Part shown: in pieces, positions 496 to 7,097 of the stretch | How the letters are laid out: each line of letters begins with the position of its first letter | Numbering within the stretch: the first letter of the stretch is position 1 | Origin: a virus | Lineage: Duplodnaviria; Heunggongvirae; Uroviricota; Caudoviricetes | DNA: 7,097 bases | IMG/VR virus record: IMGVR_UViG_2671180846_000033 | Strand: one strand, 5' to 3' | The notes under the pieces: model-generated | What the model was told of the DNA's origin: nothing | The model's input: only the letters and a program-made list of their open reading frames with translations | The model's database searches: none | Position numbers and translations under genes: made by a program

Positions 496-1269
496 ATGAC
501 TAAACATATGGACATTCATTGTCAAACACGCATATTTAACTCAATTAACCATGACACCAAATATAAAATATGTATTTTTACTCCAAAAAACATTAAAAAA
601 AATAATGCAACTCTTTATATACTTGATGGGAATAGTGCCAACAATTACATTTCTGATATTCTGCCTGTTATTGATGCACTACCCAATCCACCAGTGTTAG
701 TTACACTTGGTTATGAATCTTGGAATAACCTTAGCATTCATCGCCGTGCTTACGATTATACTCCTGATGGTGAAAATGCTATTGTTGATAACTCTAAACC
801 AGCATGGATCTACTTTACTGGTGGAGGAAGCCAGTCTTTCCGAGAATTATTACTAACTCAGATCATGCCATGGGTTAGTACTATTGCTCCGAACAGTTCC
901 AGAATCGGTATATGGGGGCACTCGCTAGGTGCTATTTTTGTGCTTGATTGCTTAAAAAATAATTCATGCTTTAACTATTATTATATATCTGCACCATCAC
1001 TTCTATGGCAGAATGAAAGAATCATCAAGATAATTAAAGATGATATATCAGAATCAAAGCACACTAAAAGTATATGCTTGCTTAACGGAAATCTTAGCCT
1101 TGATTACTCCGCATCTTTATATCCTGAAGCCATCAAAGCGGAATCTGTTTTGAGAAATATTTTGACAGAAAAATACAGTAATTTTTCTATTGTACAATTT
1201 CCAGAGCTCAATCATCAGGAGACTTTCTCTGCTGCACTCTGGAATAGCATTATTCATTTCAGCATATAA
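496..1269 (+). CDS. Alpha/beta-hydrolase, putative esterase of the IroE/Fes (siderophore esterase / esterase D) type; no recognisable N-terminal signal peptide
   Basis: 257-aa ORF with ATG at 496 preceded by GGGGAG (485-490). Contains a G-H-S-L-G nucleophile elbow (Ser codon 922-924), an LDG motif near the N-terminus, AYDYTP, and a C-terminal ELNHQ histidine. The N-terminus is hydrophilic. The gene sits in visibly AT-rich DNA. Family call is from motif pattern only. Confidence 0.75.
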   Translation: MTKHMDIHCQTRIFNSINHDTKYKICIFTPKNIKKNNATLYILDGNSANNYISDILPVIDALPNPPVLVTLGYESWNNLSIHRRAYDYTPDGENAIVDNSKPAWIYFTGGGSQSFRELLLTQIMPWVSTIAPNSSRIGIWGHSLGAIFVLDCLKNNSCFNYYYISAPSLLWQNERIIKIIKDDISESKHTKSICLLNGNLSLDYSASLYPEAIKAESVLRNILTEKYSNFSIVQFPELNHQETFSAALWNSIIHFSI

Positions 1270-1620: not shown

Positions 1621-2034
1621 CTATTCCATCATTACTCCTGTGTAAAATATCAAAACTCGCTGCATCACTTCACTGTTACGGCACTCACTACAAATTATGT
1701 TCAATTGCCTGTCATAGCGGCGTATTTCTCCGTCTGGTAATGACCAGATAAGGTCAGGATCAACCACAACCGGTTTCTTCAGTTTTGCCCTCGATAGTTT
1801 TTTGCGGGCGTTTTGCCAGTCCTTACGAGCCTGTTCAGATGGGAATAACCCGTAACCAGAGTTGTATACATCGCCACTGGCAACCAGCTCTCTGGCAAGA
1901 ACGCTCATCAGATATCTTGTCGCACCTGTCTTGGCTTCCAGTTGCCGTAACGTCTCGCGCCCACTCCGGCGTACTAGCTCAACAACCTGCCCTTTAATTT
2001 TTTCCCGCTCTTCCTGTGTAAATACTTTTGCCAT
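1621..2034 (-). CDS. Hypothetical phage protein (138 aa) downstream of the P-like gene
   Basis: The ORF track starts at a TTG (2049); an in-frame ATG at 2034 is preceded by GGAGG with 5-nt spacing. The 3' end runs into the AT-rich island. Function not recognised. Confidence 0.55.
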   Translation of the reverse strand: MAKVFTQEEREKIKGQVVELVRRSGRETLRQLEAKTGATRYLMSVLARELVASGDVYNSGYGLFPSEQARKDWQNARKKLSRAKLKKPVVVDPDLIWSLPDGEIRRYDRQLNIICSECRNSEVMQRVLIFYTGVMME

Positions 2035-2049
2035 AAGCGCCTCCGGCAA

Positions 2050-2805
2050 TCACTTTTCCGATACAACACGGCGGGAAGAATCAGTAATCTGTCGAACAAT
2101 ATCCCGGTGCTTGTTCAGCTCCCGCAGCGCGGCGCAGACTCGCTCCCACTTCTGAACATCACTTTTCGCCCTGCGCAGCGCCAGGTTTGCCCTGCGAAGG
2201 GACGGAAAAATCAGCTCATCTGCTTGCGTTTCGGTAAACGATGGCAACGGCTGCACAATGTCCGCCACAGTTTCTGTTTTAATTTCTTCCTGTGTTGCGG
2301 CTTCCCGGACTGGTAACGCAGCACCTGCTGGCTGAGGAAAGGCNNNNNNNNNNNNNNNNNNNNNNNNNNNNNNNNNNNNNNNNNNNNNNNNNNCGGATGC
2401 AGCTTCCGGCTCTGCCGGTAAATCAGCGCCCGGTATGCAGTAACGAAATTTACCGCCCTGATTCACGCGAATCAGACGCCCTTTGCTGATTACCATGGCC
2501 AGCGATGAATTCGCCCGGCGGGAGGTAATCCCGAACATCAGTGCCAGCTCATCCGCCGTTTGTGGGCCATGTTGTTCAATCGCCTCAGTCAGCATTTGCG
2601 CTGTCACTTTCGGTACCGGTGACACCGGTTCACTTTCACCAGCCTGAATCAGCCACCACATCGACCCCTTGTTATCCGCTTCACCGCGGCGCTTCAGTTT
2701 CCACAGTTCGTTGACCGCATCTTCACGGCTGATTCCAAGGCGGGCCGCCACTACCTGTGAAGAGGCTCTTTTCAGTGCTTTCAGTGCGTCAAATACGGTT
2801 TCCAT
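2050..2805 (-). CDS. Hypothetical phage protein with two winged-helix-like segments; interrupted by a 50-N run
   Basis: Track ORF 2050-2823 starts at TTG; in-frame ATG at 2805 is preceded by GGAGG. The protein reads plausibly on both sides of the N-run 2344-2393. No Walker motif seen; function unknown. Confidence 0.6.
2344..2393. other. Run of 50 N (masked or gap sequence) inside a CDS
   Basis: Directly visible in the sequence. Confidence 1.
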
Positions 2806-2838
2806 TAAAATTTCCTCCGACAAAATCGTTTCTCAGAT

Positions 2839-3399
2839 TCAAATAAAACCAGCTGCCTTCCGGCGTTCGTATTCCTGTTTCAGCCGCTCAATTGGCGTTG
2901 GCCCTTGCGGGTGTTTCGCCCCTTCCAGTTGTCGTCGCACTGGCGGAACACTCATCCCGTTACCAACATGCTTTGCCCATTTCGTCAGTTGCCGTTCTGC
3001 AAGTAGTTTTAACTCACCCTGCGTCATCTGGCGCTCAATCCCTCTGGTACGCATTTCGAGGCAGATGTGGTACAGCACAGGCTGTGGCCACGGGTATTTA
3101 TCACTCCCGTCGTATCGCCAGGATTCATTGCGCCAGCGCCGGTACTCTTCCATCACGGCATCCACCGTAAGACCAAATGGATTTGCCCCACTCTCCGAAA
3201 TCAGCGCAACAAACTCAGCCAGGTCCGGGGGCCACGTTTCACCCGCCCGGCAGCGGTCCATGCACTGACGGCAGACCAGACGGATTTGCTGTTCAGTCAT
3301 CGCACCAATCTGGGCAATCCAGAGCTTCGAAGGTGCGGCCCCGTTCTTCTGAGTCCAGCGGTTCGAATACACCTCCCCCATAAGCTCCCACAGCTTCCA
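2839..3399 (-). CDS. Replication protein P-like (lambda P family helicase-loader homologue); 5' end undetermined because of the N-run
   Basis: The translation matches my recollection of the lambda P central and C-terminal regions (MTEQQI, a PPDLAEFVAL segment, DKYPW, a TQGELKLLAERQL segment). The ORF-track start (TTG at 3495) lies in sequence that reads better in the O-like frame. The true start is either ATG at 3381 (GGGAG upstream) or inside the N-run. Confidence 0.65.
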   Translation of the reverse strand, partial: WKLWELMGEVYSNRWTQKNGAAPSKLWIAQIGAMTEQQIRLVCRQCMDRCRAGETWPPDLAEFVALISESGANPFGLTVDAVMEEYRRWRNESWRYDGSDKYPWPQPVLYHICLEMRTRGIERQMTQGELKLLAERQLTKWAKHVGNGMSVPPVRRQLEGAKHPQGPTPIERLKQEYERRKAAGFI

Positions 3400-3449
3400 N
3401 NNNNNNNNNNNNNNNNNNNNNNNNNNNNNNNNNNNNNNNNNNNNNNNNN
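3400..3449. other. Run of 50 N at the O-like/P-like gene junction
   Basis: Directly visible in the sequence. Confidence 1.
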
Positions 3450-4168
3450 GTGAAAACCTTCCCCTCCGCCATCCAGTAATCCCGGAATGCGGCAAGCTCA
3501 GCAGGTGTAAATTCCGGCTCAGGCAGAGCCATACCCCACACTGCTGCCCGTTGTCGAAAATCCGGCGACGGCTGCCAGACAGTAGTCATCGAAAATTTCC
3601 CGATCGGTTCGCTCAGGCCGTCCAGGTATTCAGGTTCGGCTGTCTGCAACGGCGCACCATGCGACTCACTGGTCGGAATACTCTCGCGTTCACGCACGTT
3701 ATGTGTGGGGTTTAATTCTTTTAGATCTGTATCTTTATTAGTTGCTTTTGTGTTTGCGTCATGTTCAAACACAACACCAACATTTGTTTGAACACCTGTT
3801 AAATCTCTCTCTTGTTTTGTTTGAACATATGCTTCCTTTCTGCTTCTTCTGGCCTGAACAGATGCTTTTCCGGCGGCTGATTTTTTGGTCAATTTTTCCC
3901 TGACTGATGCCAGATCTTCCTCAATCCGAAGATGCACCCATTCATCGCTGTTATCGCAAAAAAACTCCCGCAAGGATGGTTCCACATCAGCCCATCGCTC
4001 GTTAGTCAGACGGGAAATTTTTGCCAGCCTGTTTTTAGGTATTGGTTTCCCTGTTTGCCAGTAATTGAACATCAGCAACAAATACGCACCGTGCTCCTCT
4101 GCGGACAAATGCATGGTGTCAGCCAGGTAATCAGCTATGTACAGTTGCATGTATGGTAATGCGGCCAT
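3450..4168 (-). CDS. Replication initiator, DUF1376/YdaU-like (functional analogue of lambda O); 3' end undetermined (in or beyond the N-run)
   Basis: N-terminal segment [32 protein letters not shown] resembles DUF1376 proteins, followed by a low-complexity linker and a C-terminal domain. ATG at 4168 has GAGG 5 nt upstream; the track start at 4222 is a TTG. The frame stays open across the N-run to 3293, but that stretch overlaps convincing P-like coding. Confidence 0.65.
3762..3828. repeat. Iteron-like repeats inside the O-like gene (candidate replication origin)
   Basis: TGTTCAAACA (3762-3771) is the exact reverse complement of TGTTTGAACA, which occurs at 3785-3794 and again at 3818-3827 as part of TTTGTTTGAACA. 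The repeats lie in the AT-rich linker-coding part of the initiator gene. Confidence 0.45.
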
Positions 4169-4254
4169 AATTGCCTCATCTTGTGACGAACCATCCTCTG
4201 GTGATATTCTGTGATTCCCCAATCAACAGAATCAGCAGGGGTCTGGCATAAATA

Positions 4255-4692
4255 TCAATGCACCACAACAGACTCGCCGGATGACCCGCCGTCGCTGAAA
4301 TACGCTTTCCGGTAAACTGCCTGGACTGCATCATCATGCGCATCAATTGCCGTGCTCAACGCTTCCTGGGCCGCCAGTAATGCACGGCGCTCAACAGTGT
4401 CAAAAATACTGAGGTGATAACGCAGTTCACGCGGAAGAACAGTCAGGATAGCTGGAATTAGTGCCTGAATTTTTTCAACAGCATCAGGCGTATCCTTTTC
4501 AAGCCAGCGAAAAATATTTTGTATGTTCAATCCAATACCCTCTGTCGTAGAGGTGTCATGCATTGGTGGATAAGTCATTTCAAGCTCAAAATATGCTGTC
4601 GCTATATCATCAGCGATTTTTTTGCGCCCTACCCTCGGATAAAGCAGCCACGCATTCATCGCCATGCGGATGTGCTCATGCTTGATTTTCAT
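4255..4692 (-). CDS. ydaT: YdaT-like protein (CII functional analogue of YdaS/YdaT-type prophages)
   Basis: 145-aa ORF starting MKIKHEHI with a C-terminal segment LIPAILTVLPRELRYHLSIFDTVERRALLAAQEALSTAIDAHDDAVQAVYRKAYF that I recognise as YdaT-family. Its ATG (4692-4690) overlaps the upstream gene's TGA in an ATGA junction. Confidence 0.75.
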   Translation of the reverse strand: MKIKHEHIRMAMNAWLLYPRVGRKKIADDIATAYFELEMTYPPMHDTSTTEGIGLNIQNIFRWLEKDTPDAVEKIQALIPAILTVLPRELRYHLSIFDTVERRALLAAQEALSTAIDAHDDAVQAVYRKAYFSDGGSSGESVVVH

Positions 4693-4949
4693 GAATCAAC
4701 TCCCGCCGCTGCTTGTGCGTTAGCCTGATACTCAACAGGTAAACCATCGGTTGGATTAGGGTATTTATCAGGGCGCAATTCATGCGGAGTTACTCCCCAG
4801 TCAAGCGCCTCACATGCTGGTATAACCTCCTCCGCTGGCACTCGTTTTTTAAACCACCCACTTATGGTTTGCGGTGTTTTACCAAGACGACGCCCTAATT
4901 CTGATTGGCTCATTATTGACAGGATTTTCACTTGAGTACTTTTTTGCAT
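4689..4949 (-). CDS. ydaS: Cro-like HTH regulator, YdaS-like
   Basis: 86-aa ORF with ATG at 4949 preceded by GGAGGG. HTH segment SQSELGRRLGKTPQTISGW; divergent from the repressor gene. Confidence 0.7.
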   Translation of the reverse strand: MQKSTQVKILSIMSQSELGRRLGKTPQTISGWFKKRVPAEEVIPACEALDWGVTPHELRPDKYPNPTDGLPVEYQANAQAAAGVDS

Positions 4950-5075
4950 GTTTCCCTCCGAACTTTACGATGACACCGATAATTACAAATTTAAATTTAA
5001 ATTTCAACTTCTATTTGTAATGCCACTTATCAATTTTTTCTGTAGGATCGCGGAACTAGTTTACGAGGGGTGGTG
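4950..5075. promoter_or_regulatory. Divergent control region between the Cro-like and CI-like genes (OR-like)
   Basis: ATTACAAAT (4982-4990) and its reverse complement ATTTGTAAT (5013-5021) flank a palindromic (AAATTT)x3 tract (4987-5004). The 14-bp motif AATTACAAATTTAA (4981-4994) recurs at 6223-6236. Ribosome-binding sites for both flanking genes are present. Confidence 0.6.
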
Positions 5076-5468
5076 ATGATCTTTGTAAAACGCCTTCAGC
5101 AGGTGTTGCAGGAATTGAATATAAACCAGTCAGAGCTGGGAAGACGTCTTGGTGTAAAACCCCAATCCGTGCAAGGTTGGTTGAAAGGCGTGATGCCAAG
5201 AATGGATAAACTGGAAAAATTAGCAGAGCTCTCACAACATCCCGTCCATTGGTTCTTTATGGAAGAAGAAACTCTCGGCGATAAAATGGCTGTATCCAGT
5301 AATGACAACCAACCGCAACTTACAGAACAACAACGAAAAATCATATCGCTTTTAGATGAGTTACCTCAAAGCGACGCAGAGCAGATCATTCGTGATATGG
5401 AGCAAAAACGCGATTTCTATAAACGGAAACTTGAAGAGTTACTGCGGCAGAAAAACAAAACTGCCTGA
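5076..5468 (+). CDS. CI-like phage repressor, XRE-family HTH with coiled-coil-like C-terminus and no S24 peptidase domain
   Basis: The track ORF starts at GTG 5070; ATG at 5076 is preceded by GAGGGG (5065-5070). HTH segment NQSELGRRLGVKPQSVQGW; C-terminal 50 aa are charged and heptad-like. About 130 aa, too short for a LexA-type cleavage domain. Confidence 0.8.
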   Translation: MIFVKRLQQVLQELNINQSELGRRLGVKPQSVQGWLKGVMPRMDKLEKLAELSQHPVHWFFMEEETLGDKMAVSSNDNQPQLTEQQRKIISLLDELPQSDAEQIIRDMEQKRDFYKRKLEELLRQKNKTA

Positions 5469-5499
5469 TGCATTCCTTTTCTGGAACGAGCATCAGGCA
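5462..5499. terminator. Hairpin between the convergent repressor and higA genes (candidate bidirectional terminator)
   Basis: TGCCTGATGC (5462-5471) pairs with GCATCAGGCA (5490-5499), with inner TTCC/GGAA pairing. A T-rich tract follows on the minus strand (reverse complement of 5441-5461). Confidence 0.5.
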
Positions 5500-5514
5500 A
5501 ATGACTAGCAGATT

Positions 5515-5874
5515 TTATAATCCAACCAGGCTTTCCAGGGGGATACCAAATTGATTATGAAGACGGCGAATCATTGGTAACGTAAGGCTTCTGGTACCAT
5601 TCAACACCTCATAAACCCGATTTTTTTTCCCAATTGCGGGTTCCAAATCTTTCACAGTCAGCCCCTGCTGTTCCATGCGAAATCTTATAGCTTCAATTGG
5701 GGATGGTGGCTCAATGGGATAATGTTTTTTTTCATATTCCTCTATTAGCAAACACATCACCTCAAAAAAATCCCCCTCAGGCGTGTCAATTTCGGGCTCA
5801 TTGTCGAACATGGGTTCAACAGCACGCAACGCGGCTTCATAATCTTGCTCTGTACGAATAGGTTTGATGTTCAT
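5515..5874 (-). CDS. higA: HigA-type antitoxin (XRE HTH, type II TA)
   Basis: 119-aa ORF with C-terminal HTH LTVKDLEPAIGKKNRVYEVLNGTRSLTLPMIRRL. Starts 2 nt after the toxin stop, with GGAG upstream. Confidence 0.8.
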   Translation of the reverse strand: MNIKPIRTEQDYEAALRAVEPMFDNEPEIDTPEGDFFEVMCLLIEEYEKKHYPIEPPSPIEAIRFRMEQQGLTVKDLEPAIGKKNRVYEVLNGTRSLTLPMIRRLHNQFGIPLESLVGL

Positions 5875-5876
5875 GC

Positions 5877-6179
5877 TTACTCCAGTTCGATGGTATCAGC
5901 ATCAATAGCATCGTATTCCTTGTGGTTTCCGATGAATTTAACAAATACCCATCCTCGCTGATACGCAATTGCAACAATTAAACGGTAATGATTACCTTTT
6001 ATGTTGAATACCACGCGCCGGTTTTTCAATATACTGGCCGTTCGGTATTGTGCCTTAATGTCTGCTGGGCTTTTCCAGTCAGCTTTTGCCGCCTCATCCA
6101 CCCATGCCCTTAGCGGTTGTTCTGCATCAGGATTCTCCGCCCAAAAATCCCTGAGTGTTTTAACTGAGATAATCTTCAT
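5877..6179 (-). CDS. higB: HigB-type toxin (RelE/ParE superfamily)
   Basis: HigB-like pattern in the translation, including GNHYRLIV and KFIGNHKEYDAID. The track start (6224) is a TTG; the ATG at 6179 gives about 100 aa. Toxin precedes antitoxin, as in HigBA modules. Confidence 0.8.
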   Translation of the reverse strand: MKIISVKTLRDFWAENPDAEQPLRAWVDEAAKADWKSPADIKAQYRTASILKNRRVVFNIKGNHYRLIVAIAYQRGWVFVKFIGNHKEYDAIDADTIELE

Positions 6180-6190
6180 AACTGTATAGT

Positions 6191-6207
6191 AGTCCCATTT
6201 TGGGACT
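6191..6207. promoter_or_regulatory. Perfect 17-bp palindrome AGTCCCATTTTGGGACT just upstream of higB (candidate HigA/HigBA operator)
   Basis: Read directly from the sequence; lies 12-28 nt upstream of the higB ATG on the minus strand. Confidence 0.5.
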
Positions 6208-6222
6208 GATGCAACAGCCCGC

Positions 6223-6276
6223 AATTACAAATTTAATAATAAACATGTTGACCAGTTAAATTTTAATTTGTAAATT
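6223..6276 (+). promoter_or_regulatory. pL-like promoter/operator region for the rightward early operon (OL-like)
   Basis: Second copy of AATTACAAATTTAA (6223-6236); TTGACC (6248-6253), 17-bp spacer, TAAATT (6271-6276); inverted ATTTGTAA (6266-6273) overlaps the -10. Confidence 0.5.
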
Positions 6277-6457
6277 GTATCCATAAACCCACCCCGCCCC
6301 ACAGAACGCAGGGCAATACTTCGAGTTACCCGGCAGTGGTCAGGGGTTAAGTAGCCAGCCTGAGGCGTATGAACATGACGGCGGGGATTACGTTTAACTA
6401 TGCAGCAGGTTTTTTGTTCCGCTACCCCGGCGTTAAGGGGAAACAGAGGATTTCTCA

Positions 6458-6814
6458 GTGGGCGAAGTCAAACATCAGAATGGAAGGCATCCAGGGATCA
6501 GCAAAGAAACAGCGATGGCGCTTTATATTGATATCAGCGCCATTGCCGGACAGGTAAGAATTATCAGAGCGGTAACTAAGCGGTATGCGCCTTTACTTCA
6601 GAAAGTCTCTGGTGAGTGCACCGAAGATATTGTCAACGATTTCGTCATCAAACTGCGAGGACTCATCTTCAGTTACAAGGTGACCACAATTTTTGCAGAT
6701 GGCTCCCGCGAAACTGTCAGAGCCCTGCGGCTTAAAGGATGTGTCAAAGACTTAGCCACCACATTCTGGGCAAGAAAACTTGATTGTATTCATAACCAAT
6801 TTCCTCTCGAGTAA
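6458..6814 (+). CDS. Hypothetical early-left operon protein
   Basis: 118-aa ORF from GTG 6458 (AGAGGA 7 nt upstream) or about 100 aa from ATG 6515. No family recognised. Confidence 0.5.
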   Translation: MGEVKHQNGRHPGISKETAMALYIDISAIAGQVRIIRAVTKRYAPLLQKVSGECTEDIVNDFVIKLRGLIFSYKVTTIFADGSRETVRALRLKGCVKDLATTFWARKLDCIHNQFPLE

Positions 6815-6885
6815 CAGACCCCTCAGAGGATACCACCTCGCCTGACGTGGTTAAAAGCAGGCAGCGCTAACCACAAGGAGCCGAC

Positions 6886-7097
6886 ATGCAGAAACGAGAA
6901 CCCGTCATCATCGCGCCAGACTATACCGATGATGAACTTTATGAGTGGATGCACCAGAAAATTAAGGCAGCGCAGGACCTGAAATGGGCCAATGAAGCCA
7001 GGGCTAAGCAGGCTGAAAATCTGTCCGCTCTGGAGCAGGATATCACCAATCTGGAAAAAGCAGCGGCATTAAGCATTGCCAGAATGATTACATACCC
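6886..7097 (+). CDS. Hypothetical early-left operon protein, 5' part (runs off the window end)
   Basis: ATG at 6886 preceded by AAGGAG (6876-6881). Open frame to the window end; translation begins MQKREPVIIAPDYTDDELYEW and continues with a coiled-coil-like segment. Not in the ORF track because no stop is reached. Confidence 0.55.
   Translation, partial: MQKREPVIIAPDYTDDELYEWMHQKIKAAQDLKWANEARAKQAENLSALEQDITNLEKAAALSIARMITY

Follow-up and report, generated by a model that had tools for sequence, protein, structure and literature searches.

The closest described systems are the YdaS/YdaT pairs of CP-933P in E. coli O157:H7 (PMC8630535, PMC9986795) and of Rac in E. coli K-12 (PMC11879457; PMC5917428, a letter by Jobling on the Rac system). 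In CP-933P, YdaT is not toxic and activates the promoter PRE933P, which is active if YdaT is present and otherwise silent (PMC8630535). CP-933P YdaT is a tetramer that binds its box with a sub-micromolar Kd; the operator has been defined experimentally, and R60, the sole fully conserved residue of the recognition helix, is suggested by a model as indispensable for binding the operator (PMC9986795). In Rac, YdaT acting on its box raises a reverse promoter by up to 29-fold and increases racR expression; R57, mutated jointly with H56 (H56A R57A), is required for DNA binding, and the mutated version of the box used in that study was CCCGGGTTCATGGCGCGC (PMC11879457). Box binding has been demonstrated for both homologs (PMC9986795, PMC11879457), and the Rac and CP-933P proteins cross-activate (PMC11879457). 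The placement of the activated promoter differs between the two prophages: the start lies within or beside the box in CP-933P, while the Rac promoter is about 190 bp away, inside ydaS.

We analysed a viral DNA stretch of 7,097 nucleotides (the window). A sequence-only reading had described a YdaS-like/YdaT-like gene pair in the cro/cII position, overlapping in an ATGA junction. Both minus-strand open reading frames and their overlap were found at 4255-4949, and the pair indeed lies between a divergent cI-like repressor gene (5076-5468) and O/P-like replication genes. The genes concerned are as follows.

4689..4949, minus strand: gene for a Cro-like (YdaS-family) HTH regulator, 86 aa (open reading frame).
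4255..4692, minus strand: gene for a YdaT-like (CII-analogue) transcription factor, 145 aa (open reading frame).
4689..4692, minus strand: ATGA stop/start overlap of the cro-like and ydaT-like genes (direct sequence reading).
4700..4704, minus strand: Shine-Dalgarno sequence GGGAG of ydaT, within the 3' end of the cro-like gene, 7 nt before the ATG (sequence).
3293..4222, minus strand: replication-initiation (O-like/YdaU-like) gene, directly 3' of ydaT (Pfam DUF1376 and DnaT; PHROG primosomal protein).
2839-3495: lambda-P-like gene, after the O-like gene (Pfam Phage_lambda_P; PHROG P-like helicase loader).
5076..5468, plus strand: gene for a cI-like HTH repressor, 130 aa, or 132 aa from a GTG at 5070 (Pfam HTH_3).

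The plus-strand letters at 4689-4692 are TCAT and the coding strand thus has ATGA, the ydaT-like ATG and the cro-like TGA together making up the 4-nt overlap. The rightward-type early operon begins with the cro-like gene, and the gene order (cI-like repressor, divergent cro-like, ydaT-like, O-like, P-like, DUF1627, DUF977) is the same in CP-933P and Rac. In identical DNA, RefSeq lists the coding sequences as WP_001172789.1, named 'transcriptional regulator', and as WP_000693932.1, named 'toxin YdaT family protein'.

The family assignment of both proteins held up in profile searches, with Pfam YdaT_toxin and YdaS_toxin each matched above the cutoff and homology to solved structures in agreement. 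The YdaT-like protein scored 42.1 bits against YdaT_toxin (PF06254; cutoff 21) and, over residues 1-130, matched phrog_163, 'CII-like transcriptional activator', with an E value of 5.3e-37. Its homology to solved structures spans the full length, with E values of 2e-30 for 3c4r (query residues 1-145) and 5e-29 for 8bt1 (residues 2-145), the latter being 47% identical overall. The full-length homology takes in the traits of the solved YdaT fold, namely an N-terminal POU-like HTH with a long α2-α3 loop and a long C-terminal helix. In the YdaT alignment, an α2-α3 loop region of comparable length was kept, and the recognition-helix residues R62 and W63, which correspond to R60 in CP-933P and to R57/W58 in Rac, were invariant columns. 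A single-sequence AlphaFold model of the protein (pLDDT 45) was too poor to inform.

The two halves of the YdaT-like protein resemble different systems. With the CP-933P type (a related O157 paralogue), identity is 63% in the N-terminal part and about 33% in the C-terminal part; with Rac it is 41% and 83%, respectively. Judged by these identities, the protein is a natural chimera of a CP-933P-type DNA-binding domain and a Rac-type tetramerization helix. Concerning lambda CII, the YdaT-like protein gave no match to Pfam Phage_CII at E <= 0.01, and a tblastn search of 80 DUF1627-containing IMG/VR loci with an approximate lambda CII sequence gave none either. The relationship of YdaT to lambda CII is one of functional analogy only. 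No NCBIfam model matched the YdaT-like or the Cro-like protein.

The Cro-like protein exceeded the cutoff of Pfam YdaS_toxin (PF15943) by a modest margin (34.6 bits, cutoff 30), compared with 46.5 bits for the true CP-933P YdaS and 107.7 bits for Rac YdaS. It also matched Pfam HTH_3 (24.9 bits, cutoff 23) and phrog_35 (E 5.5e-25). It is 51% identical to the cro-like gene product of a paralogous O157:H7 prophage that is not CP-933P, 42% identical to Rac YdaS over 50 aa, and only 23% identical to the true CP-933P YdaS. The nearest solved structure was Xfaso1 Cro, 3bd1, with an E value of 0.0046 for the single sequence; a profile built from six YdaS-type proteins recovered 3bd1 (E 1.2e-13), Pfl6 Cro (E 2e-5) and P22 Cro (E 0.003). 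A Foldseek search of the PDB with the single-sequence AlphaFold model of the Cro-like protein (pLDDT 69.5) returned no significant match, CP-933P YdaS 8c7k being at the top with an E value of 0.86.

The structure of the junction was then considered. The ATGA overlap lies within a perfect inverted repeat.

4682..4699: predicted YdaT box, TTGATT-N6-AATCAA, reading TTGATTCATGAAAATCAA on the coding strand (sequence match).

The box is centred on the ATGA, its spacer CATGAA contains both the ydaT ATG and the cro TGA, and it covers positions -7 to +11 of ydaT. The window has no other exact 18-bp match, and chance would give 0.01 matches to the core. The CP-933P junction carries an identical box, and the box of the window agrees at 17 of 18 positions with the footprinted Rac YdaT-box ATGATTCATGAAAATCAA (PMC11879457). 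Loci for comparison were drawn from E. coli complete genomes, a phage collection and IMG/VR; a scan of genome contigs with the YdaT alignment gave only 9 loci, the back-translated patterns being too specific. Of 25 loci, 22 kept the core of the box at this position, and the box was present in 31 of the 33 distinct IMG/VR junctions. Its position was constant whichever cro family preceded it, YdaS-type, P22_Cro-type or AlpA/HTH_17-type, and DNA homology among E. coli genomes ended just beyond it, marking a module boundary. The YdaT box at the junction is clearly a non-random feature.

These comparisons bear on the overlap of the two genes, which the sequence-only reading had called translationally coupled. 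Locus L111, the true CP-933P, has the same ATGA overlap, as do about half of the related junctions, the upstream gene ending at either +4 (ATGA) or +17 relative to ydaT; a 4-nt overlap by itself is not rare among related loci. (Another locus, L003, was rejected as CP-933P: the YdaT encoded there is not the same as the 8bt1 construct, and PDB searches with its cro-like protein gave no match.) Since the spacer CATGAA holds the ydaT start and the cro stop, the overlap is family-typical, a by-product of the conserved box, and its value as specific evidence for coupling falls away, while the overlap as such stands. Coupling of the pair is not itself an observation. The overlap may contribute some, though ydaT owns a Shine-Dalgarno sequence; RNA folding of the junction revealed no unusual structure (z = -0.28) of the kind, sequestration of that Shine-Dalgarno sequence, that would favour obligatory coupling. 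Comparison of the loci supports a reading in which the conserved spacer gives rise to the overlap, as it would provide the ydaT ATG together with an in-frame TGA for whichever cro module recombines upstream. The box and ydaT move as one module, with the box as the recombination boundary to interchangeable cro modules, and the supply of cro stop codons by the box explains the recurrent 4-nt and 17-nt overlaps.

We also examined the repressor and the control regions on both of its sides.

4950..5075: divergent control region, OR-like, 126 bp (promoter scan, inverted repeat).
5007-5002 and 4984-4979, minus strand: PR-like promoter, with -35 TTGAAA and -10 AATTAT, the latter preceded by TG (promoter scan).
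4970-4997, plus strand: PRM-like candidate promoter (promoter scan).
4983-4990 and 5013-5020: predicted operator-like half-sites TTACAAAT and ATTTGTAA, respectively, in the OR-like region (inverted repeat).
4954-4959: Shine-Dalgarno sequence GGAGGG of the cro-like gene.
6223..6276: predicted OL-like operator cluster, with TTACAAAT at 6225-6232 and ATTTGTAA at 6266-6273.
6248-6276, plus strand: PL-like promoter TTGACC-17-TAAATT, overlapping the OL-like cluster (promoter scan).

For the OR-like inverted repeat, 0 matches were expected by chance, and an exact 14-mer is common to the OL-like cluster and the OR-like region. The OL-like cluster with its PL-like promoter parallels PL933P of CP-933P (PMC8630535). 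The repressor gene is divergent from the cro-like gene, which may share with it the putative operators, and these may overlap both promoter-like elements. HTH_3 was the only Pfam family matched by the repressor, which is without a LexA/S24 cleavage domain; its score against the DicA subfamily (49.9 bits) was under the cutoff. It is 31% identical over 123 aa to the repressor of a paralogous O157 locus, again not CP-933P, and its likeness to the true PaaR2 is limited to the C-terminal 56 aa. The distance of the repressor from PaaR2, along with the 23% identity of the Cro-like protein to the tested CP-933P YdaS, is a counterpoint to reading the locus as a switch.

A DNA target of the YdaT-like protein had been assumed upstream of the repressor gene, but published work places the primary YdaT site at the cro/ydaT junction. 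Strict and lenient scans for a YdaT-activated promoter returned weak candidates only. One has -35 TCGCCA and -10 GATTTT ending at 4689, its conservation in the O157 paralogue being explained by coding sequence; another has a perfect TTGACA at 4916-4921 with a poor -10 at 15-nt spacing. Neither was assigned as the activated promoter.

The Pfam names YdaS_toxin and YdaT_toxin and the RefSeq name 'toxin YdaT family protein' raise the question of whether the two genes form a type II toxin-antitoxin pair, in which one protein poisons the cell and the other neutralizes it by binding and autoregulates the two-gene operon. Two small genes with a 4-nt overlap are usual for such operons, and Rac YdaS and YdaT are toxic once derepressed or overexpressed (PMC5700377, PMC5700373). 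However, the toxicity of Rac YdaT acts via transcriptional activation of the host gene rcsA, an activation that the CP-933P homolog does not perform (PMC11879457); CP-933P YdaT is non-toxic, and the CP-933P pair has been shown to be no toxin-antitoxin system (PMC8630535). YdaT homologs are tetrameric HTH proteins with binding to a defined operator (PMC9986795), and the YdaT-like protein of the window carries the CP-933P-type DNA-binding domain. Moreover, both proteins encoded here are HTH DNA-binding proteins by profile and by structure homology, with no toxin fold among them, and PADLOC returned no matches. The genes head an operon that continues without a terminator into the O-like and P-like genes rather than forming a stand-alone bicistron. 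Finally, ydaT and the box stay constant while the gene upstream of them can come from any of at least three unrelated HTH families, an arrangement ill-suited to a cognate antitoxin. Taking these points together, a toxin-antitoxin role is hardly credible. Between the two roles that the sequence-only reading had left side by side, the Cro/CII type is the one that stood, and the question has been settled experimentally in the paralogous systems of CP-933P (PMC8630535, PMC9986795) and Rac (PMC11879457, PMC5917428).

We conclude that, in a lambdoid prophage found in STEC (E. coli of the O26/O103/O111 type), the pair very probably represents the Cro and CII analogues of the lysis/lysogeny switch, and not a toxin-antitoxin system. 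In the mechanism that we propose, the PR-like promoter in the 126-bp divergent region would transcribe the cro-like, ydaT-like, O-like and P-like genes, and the cI-like repressor and the Cro-like protein would compete for the TTACAAAT/ATTTGTAA operators in the OR-like and OL-like clusters, both steps being read from the sequence. By homology, a YdaT-like tetramer, with its HTH and long C-terminal helix, would bind the perfect box on its own start codon. Once bound, it would turn on leftward transcription (plus strand of the window), which would cross cro in antisense and read the repressor gene in sense. This transcription would help repression to be established or maintained, in the manner of lambda CII at PRE. 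That the protein forms a tetramer, binds the box and activates the leftward promoter are predictions, for which the support here is the 83% C-terminal identity to Rac. The IS disruption of the integrase in at least one host genome means that the switch may serve only as a maintenance circuit.

As the box overlaps the spacer after the ydaT Shine-Dalgarno sequence and the start codon, it could also be autoregulatory. Taken further, the YdaT-like protein might be mainly a negative autoregulator or roadblock, limiting itself and the downstream replication genes rather than activating repressor synthesis. The span of the box from -7 to +11 of ydaT would suit such a role, as would the CP-933P box, whose position at the proposed PRE start or downstream of it is odd for an activator site (PMC9986795); published papers also call CII/YdaT a 'repressor'. 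On the contrary, the Rac ydaT reporter was little changed by box mutation and racR rose steeply only with the wild-type box (PMC11879457), and PRE933P needs YdaT for activity (PMC8630535). A mainly negative role is thus very unlikely, and a roadblock would in any case be compatible with a Cro/CII-type switch.

A further match to the core of the box is present downstream.

2459..2474: candidate second core YdaT box, TGATT-N6-AATCA, in the DUF1627 gene; CTGATTCGCGTGAATCAG on the minus strand, coding for L-I-R-V-N-Q.

The window has just two core matches (0.01 expected), of which this is one. It lies in the same operon 2.2 kb downstream of the junction box (2.4 kb in Rac), and the site is also present in Rac ydaW. 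Among 79 close relatives it was invariant save for one spacer position. We rejected it as a proven site: it is absent from CP-933P and PPompW, and the synonymous-site test was weak, the three core third positions being invariant with P of about 0.13. The local 30-nt stretch gave P of about 0.013, in a window chosen post hoc. The DUF1627 genes of cII-type phages encode the peptide LVRVSI or LARVNQ at the site and so offered no clean synonymous control, and no promoter-like element was found near 2459-2474. The YdaT tetramer has two DNA-binding faces (PMC9986795), and in CP-933P only one strong site is known. A second face of the YdaT-like tetramer might use the second box, and the junction box and the second box could then form a repression loop across the replication genes, or the second box could drive a second CII-style event akin to lambda PaQ or PI. 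Taking into account the Rac-type tetramerization helix and the shared box, cross-activation by, or mixed tetramers with, other YdaT paralogues can also be imagined; if true, this would link several prophage switches in one STEC cell. We consider these additional roles rather unlikely.

Concerning its distribution, more than 130 complete STEC genomes carry the region at 100% identity, and RefSeq already has an annotation of it. One may ask whether the genes are an inert relic, intact merely by recent descent in a defective prophage and regulating nothing. In strain E2865 an IS3 element interrupts the prophage integrase, the window is mosaic relative to every complete genome searched, and complete identity among STEC genomes could mean recent clonal spread, not selection. 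Nevertheless, both open reading frames, the Shine-Dalgarno sequences, the perfect box, the divergent promoters and the two operator clusters are all intact, and the box has been retained over many diverged junctions. CP-933P and Rac, both cryptic prophages, have homologous circuits that work and show bistability (PMC8630535, PMC11879457). We therefore regard an inert locus as extremely improbable and retain the Cro/CII-type switch.

The locus adds a new mosaic copy to a family, YdaS/YdaT, that has been studied before, and these findings will not surprise a phage specialist. The 'toxin' names in Pfam (YdaS_toxin, YdaT_toxin) and RefSeq invite a toxin-antitoxin reading; the locus has all the hallmarks of a Cro/CII-type switch instead and should be annotated as one. 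As a natural domain swap between two studied YdaT proteins, the YdaT-like allele could be used to locate the domain responsible for the rcsA activation and the toxicity that are specific to Rac. Up to 7 copies of the YdaT family occur in STEC genomes; with one box common to all YdaT prophages examined, cross-talk among co-resident prophages is plausible, including in strains bearing Stx phages. The points on the box as a module, the domain swap and prophage cross-talk go somewhat beyond the published YdaS/YdaT papers, as far as the available parts of those papers extend.

Among known systems, CP-933P YdaS/YdaT (YdaT, 8bt1; YdaS, 8c7k; PMC8630535, PMC9986795) shares with the window the order of repressor, divergent cro-like gene, ydaT and replication genes, the ATGA overlap with a cro tail ending in ..GVDS*, and the identical 18-bp box TTGATTCATGAAAATCAA on the ydaT start. 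In both, a toxin-antitoxin module adjoins the repressor, but that of CP-933P is paaA2-parE2, co-transcribed with the repressor, whereas that of the window is higBA on the opposite strand. The CP-933P paaR2 is leaderless, while the window repressor has a 5' leader with a Shine-Dalgarno sequence, and the operator half-site is GTTTAGTAA in CP-933P and TTACAAAT in the window.

Rac RacR/YdaS/YdaT (PMC11879457, PMC5917428) is alike in its box over the ydaT ATG with the spacer CATGAA and in the YdaU-like DUF1376 and DUF1627 (ydaW) genes downstream, and its YdaS belongs to the same Pfam family as the Cro-like protein. In contrast, ydaS and ydaT of Rac are 22 bp apart without overlap, RacR is a different repressor from that of the window, and Rac YdaT activates host rcsA and is toxic, an rcsA activity that the window protein is predicted from its CP-933P-type DNA-binding domain to lack.

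The Xfaso 1 Cro/P22-Cro-like all-alpha Cro family (3bd1, 2pij, 1rzs) resembles the Cro-like protein in size and in an HTH followed by an ELRPD motif. Identity to this family is low, and the Cro-like protein adds a 25-residue proline/alanine-rich tail that runs into the YdaT box.

Lambda Cro/CII occupies the same immunity-region position as the pair and follows the same logic, in which an early-operon activator drives leftward transcription through cro into the repressor gene. Like YdaT, lambda CII has an HTH and forms a tetramer, and its overproduction is likewise toxic (PMC5917428). The CII site is a direct repeat, TTGC-N6-TTGC, in the PRE -35 region, whereas the YdaT site is an inverted repeat; unlike lambda CII, the YdaT tetramer is 222-symmetric with its two DNA-binding faces (PMC9986795), and lambda cro and cII do not overlap as the genes of the window do.

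The two genes of the pair, found by ORF calling, lie exactly where the sequence-only reading had put them:

4689-4949, minus strand, cro-like (YdaS-type) ORF, 86 aa
4255-4692, minus strand, ydaT-like ORF, 145 aa

The plus strand at 4689-4692 is TCAT, that is, ATGA on the coding strand, where the TGA of the upstream gene is overlapped by the ATG of the downstream gene. Many complete genomes of STEC, O26 and O103 among them, carry DNA 100% identical to 4100-5500, and 135 complete genomes hold at least 80% of this stretch. The locus is widespread in STEC and already annotated in RefSeq, which names the two CDS in this DNA 'transcriptional regulator' and 'toxin YdaT family protein'.

Profile searches with YdaS and YdaT models upheld the proposed assignment of both proteins. 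The upstream protein scored 34.6 bits against Pfam YdaS_toxin (cutoff 30), with HTH_3 also above threshold, and matched phrog_35 in PHROG (5.5e-25). Its nearest solved structure is Xfaso1 Cro (3bd1), and a profile of six YdaS-type proteins ties the group to the Xfaso1, Pfl6 and P22 Cro proteins. The downstream protein scored 42.1 bits against Pfam YdaT_toxin (cutoff 21), matched phrog_163, 'CII-like transcriptional activator' (5.3e-37), and aligned end to end with both solved YdaT structures (3c4r, 2e-30; 8bt1, 5e-29). The Arg-Trp pair of the YdaT recognition helix is kept as R62/W63. With both Pfam and PHROG profiles matched, the similarity whose absence would have told against the assignment is therefore present.

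The cro/cII position claimed for the pair is borne out by its neighbours, a divergent HTH repressor gene on one side and O-like and P-like genes on the other:

5076-5468, plus strand, HTH repressor gene, 130 aa, without a cleavage domain, divergent from the pair
3293-4222, DUF1376/DnaT gene (O-like/YdaU-like), downstream of ydaT
2839-3495, lambda-P-like gene, downstream of ydaT
2050-2823, minus strand, DUF1627 gene, downstream of ydaT
1621-2049, DUF977 gene, downstream of ydaT

CP-933P has the same gene order, as does Rac of E. coli K-12 (racR, ydaS, ydaT, ydaU, ydaV, ydaW). Runs of 50 N at 2344-2393 (DUF1627 gene) and 3400-3449 (O-like/P-like overlap) give X runs in the translations. The divergent region holds two elements from a promoter scan and a pair of half-sites:

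126-bp divergent region, minus strand, PR-like promoter TTGAAA-17-AATTAT with an upstream TG
126-bp divergent region, plus strand, PRM-like candidate promoter
126-bp divergent region, inverted pair of TTACAAAT half-sites, operator-like

The half-sites (TTACAAAT/ATTTGTAA) between the repressor and cro genes recur as a second cluster at 6223-6276, which shares an exact 14-mer, AATTACAAATTTAA, with the repressor/cro region and overlaps a plus-strand promoter-like TTGACC-17-TAAATT. The layout of this cluster resembles an OL/PL region, from which the ydfC/dicB side of the prophage would be driven. Another gene pair separates the repressor gene from the OL-like region, at roughly the place of paaA2-parE2 in CP-933P:

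5515-6224, minus strand, higB-higA pair

The region upstream of this pair overlaps the OL-like cluster. In PADLOC, HigB/HigA matched two models, PD-Lambda-2_A (E 1e-40) and PD-Lambda-2_B (E 2e-42, confined to the first 119 of 402 model positions), so that the pair resembles a shortened version of this defence system's first two components.

The junction itself carries a match to the published YdaT operator. The CP-933P operator, defined by footprinting, ITC and native MS, is an inverted repeat, TTGATT-N6-AATCAA, where ydaS borders on ydaT (PMC9986795), and the Rac operator is ATGATTCATGAAAATCAA, overlapping the ydaT start codon (PMC11879457). The window has this box at 4682-4699, -7 to +11 relative to the ydaT ATG, as TTGATTTTCATGAATCAA (coding strand, TTGATTCATGAAAATCAA). 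No other exact match occurs in the window, where 0.01 matches to the 10-base core are expected by chance. The box is identical to that of the true CP-933P locus, whereas that of Rac differs in one outer base.

We compared the junction across 25 loci (E. coli, other Escherichia/Shigella genomes and phages) and 33 distinct IMG/VR junctions. Core-box position was conserved in 22 of the 25 loci and in 31 of the 33 junctions. The upstream cro-type genes belonged to at least three HTH families (YdaS-type, P22_Cro-type and HTH_17/AlpA-type), and BLAST homology among diverged E. coli loci ended just beyond the box. On these grounds, box and ydaT behave as one module, just upstream of which cro modules are exchanged by recombination. 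Irrespective of its HTH family, the upstream ORF terminates either as ..(G/N)(V/D)DS* at the TGA in the box spacer, giving the 4-nt ATGA overlap, or as ..IHENQA* at the next in-frame TGA within ydaT, giving a 17-nt overlap. Rac is an exception to both, with a 22-bp gap. The stop codons of incoming cro genes thus come from the conserved box/ydaT 5' sequence. The pair had been called translationally coupled. The overlap is real; however, it is also found in the true CP-933P locus and is therefore family-typical and does not in itself speak for coupling. An SD of its own (GGGAG, 4700-4704) precedes ydaT, and folding of the RNA across the junction gave nothing unusual (z = -0.28).

As for mechanism, published work describes YdaT as a tetramer that has two DNA-binding faces (PMC9986795) and activates PRE933P, an otherwise silent leftward promoter (PMC8630535). 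On box binding in Rac, a reverse promoter within ydaS rises up to 29-fold and racR is expressed more strongly; cross-activation between the Rac and CP-933P proteins was also seen (PMC11879457). By analogy, the PR-like promoter would transcribe cro-ydaT-O-P, YdaT would bind 4682-4699, and bound YdaT would activate plus-strand transcription toward the repressor gene. The position of the activated promoter differs between the CP-933P and Rac systems (PMC9986795, PMC8630535, PMC11879457), and our scan for it gave weak candidates only. On the plus strand at 4916-4921, within the 5' part of the cro-like gene and ~225 bp from the box, a perfect -35 hexamer, TTGACA, points to the repressor gene. The sole candidate for its -10, TACTTT at 15-nt spacing, is poor. 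Its counterpart in Rac could be the reverse promoter PracR4, which is ~190 bp from the box there. A terminator-like hairpin with a T-run, antisense within ydaT (4598-4627, plus strand), is reminiscent of lambda OOP; it is probably due to chance, since it lies in an allele-specific loop region, and one such hairpin was found against 1.4 expected.

The family names suggest instead a toxin-antitoxin system, a role also raised in the sequence-only reading. This is not supported: both proteins are HTH DNA binders, they form no self-contained operon, the upstream partner of ydaT is exchangeable among related loci, and a PADLOC search gave no hits for the pair. Experimental literature on homologues (PMC8630535, PMC5917428) also rejects it.

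One further core box was found:

2459-2474, inside the minus-strand DUF1627 gene, perfect TGATT-N6-AATCA, encoding L-I-R-V-N-Q

The junction box is 2.2 kb upstream of it. In favour of a functional site, Rac has the same core box in ydaW (5620-5635 of its locus), 2.4 kb from its junction box, and 79 of 80 close IMG/VR relatives keep it, varying at one spacer base only, while 49% of third codon positions vary in its flanks. Against it, CP-933P and its O157 paralogue lack the box, with L-A-R-V-N-Q instead, in phage PPompW it is broken by a synonymous AAC codon, and no promoter-like element was found near 2459-2474. The term 'ydaW' is absent from PMC11879457. The second box may be a coding by-product; that the free face of the YdaT tetramer uses it as a partner site seems unlikely.

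PPompW also carries a very divergent YdaT-like protein of 183 aa (MKITTEQV...KIFERWK...ALIPAIMEAI; 2450-3001 of its locus), encoded after dicC with a 17-nt overlap. Because no TGATT-N6-AATCA was found at the start of this gene, its sequence suggests a sub-family with a different operator. Two MAG contigs, assigned to Candidatus Nanosynbacter and Collinsella, hold a Rac-type and a CP-933P-type YdaT locus, respectively, of E. coli-type prophages, and are most likely mis-binned.

No complete E. coli genome covered 80% of the window. One prophage matches positions 1923-7097 at 98.6% identity, and the 100% match to 1-1950 lies at another site, which in strain E2865 is ~43 kb distant. The source of the window is therefore a recombinant, mosaic prophage that the collection does not include. 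After DUF977, an AT-rich ORF (496-1269, plus strand) lies inside a 36% GC stretch (1-1600). Matching genomes label it 'alpha/beta hydrolase', and its Pfam match, to Esterase, is only weak; it is likely a moron. In an O157:H7 prophage locus paralogous to CP-933P, DUF977 is followed by the same gene.

YdaT is itself mosaic. When it is split at the invariant KIQ..IPAI motif, the N-terminal part shares 63% identity with the CP-933P type and 41% with Rac, and the C-terminal part shares 33% with the CP-933P type and 83% with Rac; megablast matched only the 3' half of the gene to Rac ydaT. Rac YdaT owes its toxicity to activation of host rcsA, which the CP-933P protein does not activate (PMC11879457). 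Because its DNA-binding domain is CP-933P-type, the window YdaT should, by analogy, act like the non-toxic CP-933P protein. These results support the pair as a mosaic YdaS/YdaT Cro/CII-analogue switch of Rac- and CP-933P-type lambdoid prophages, a kind of switch already well characterised, of which this mosaic form is new.
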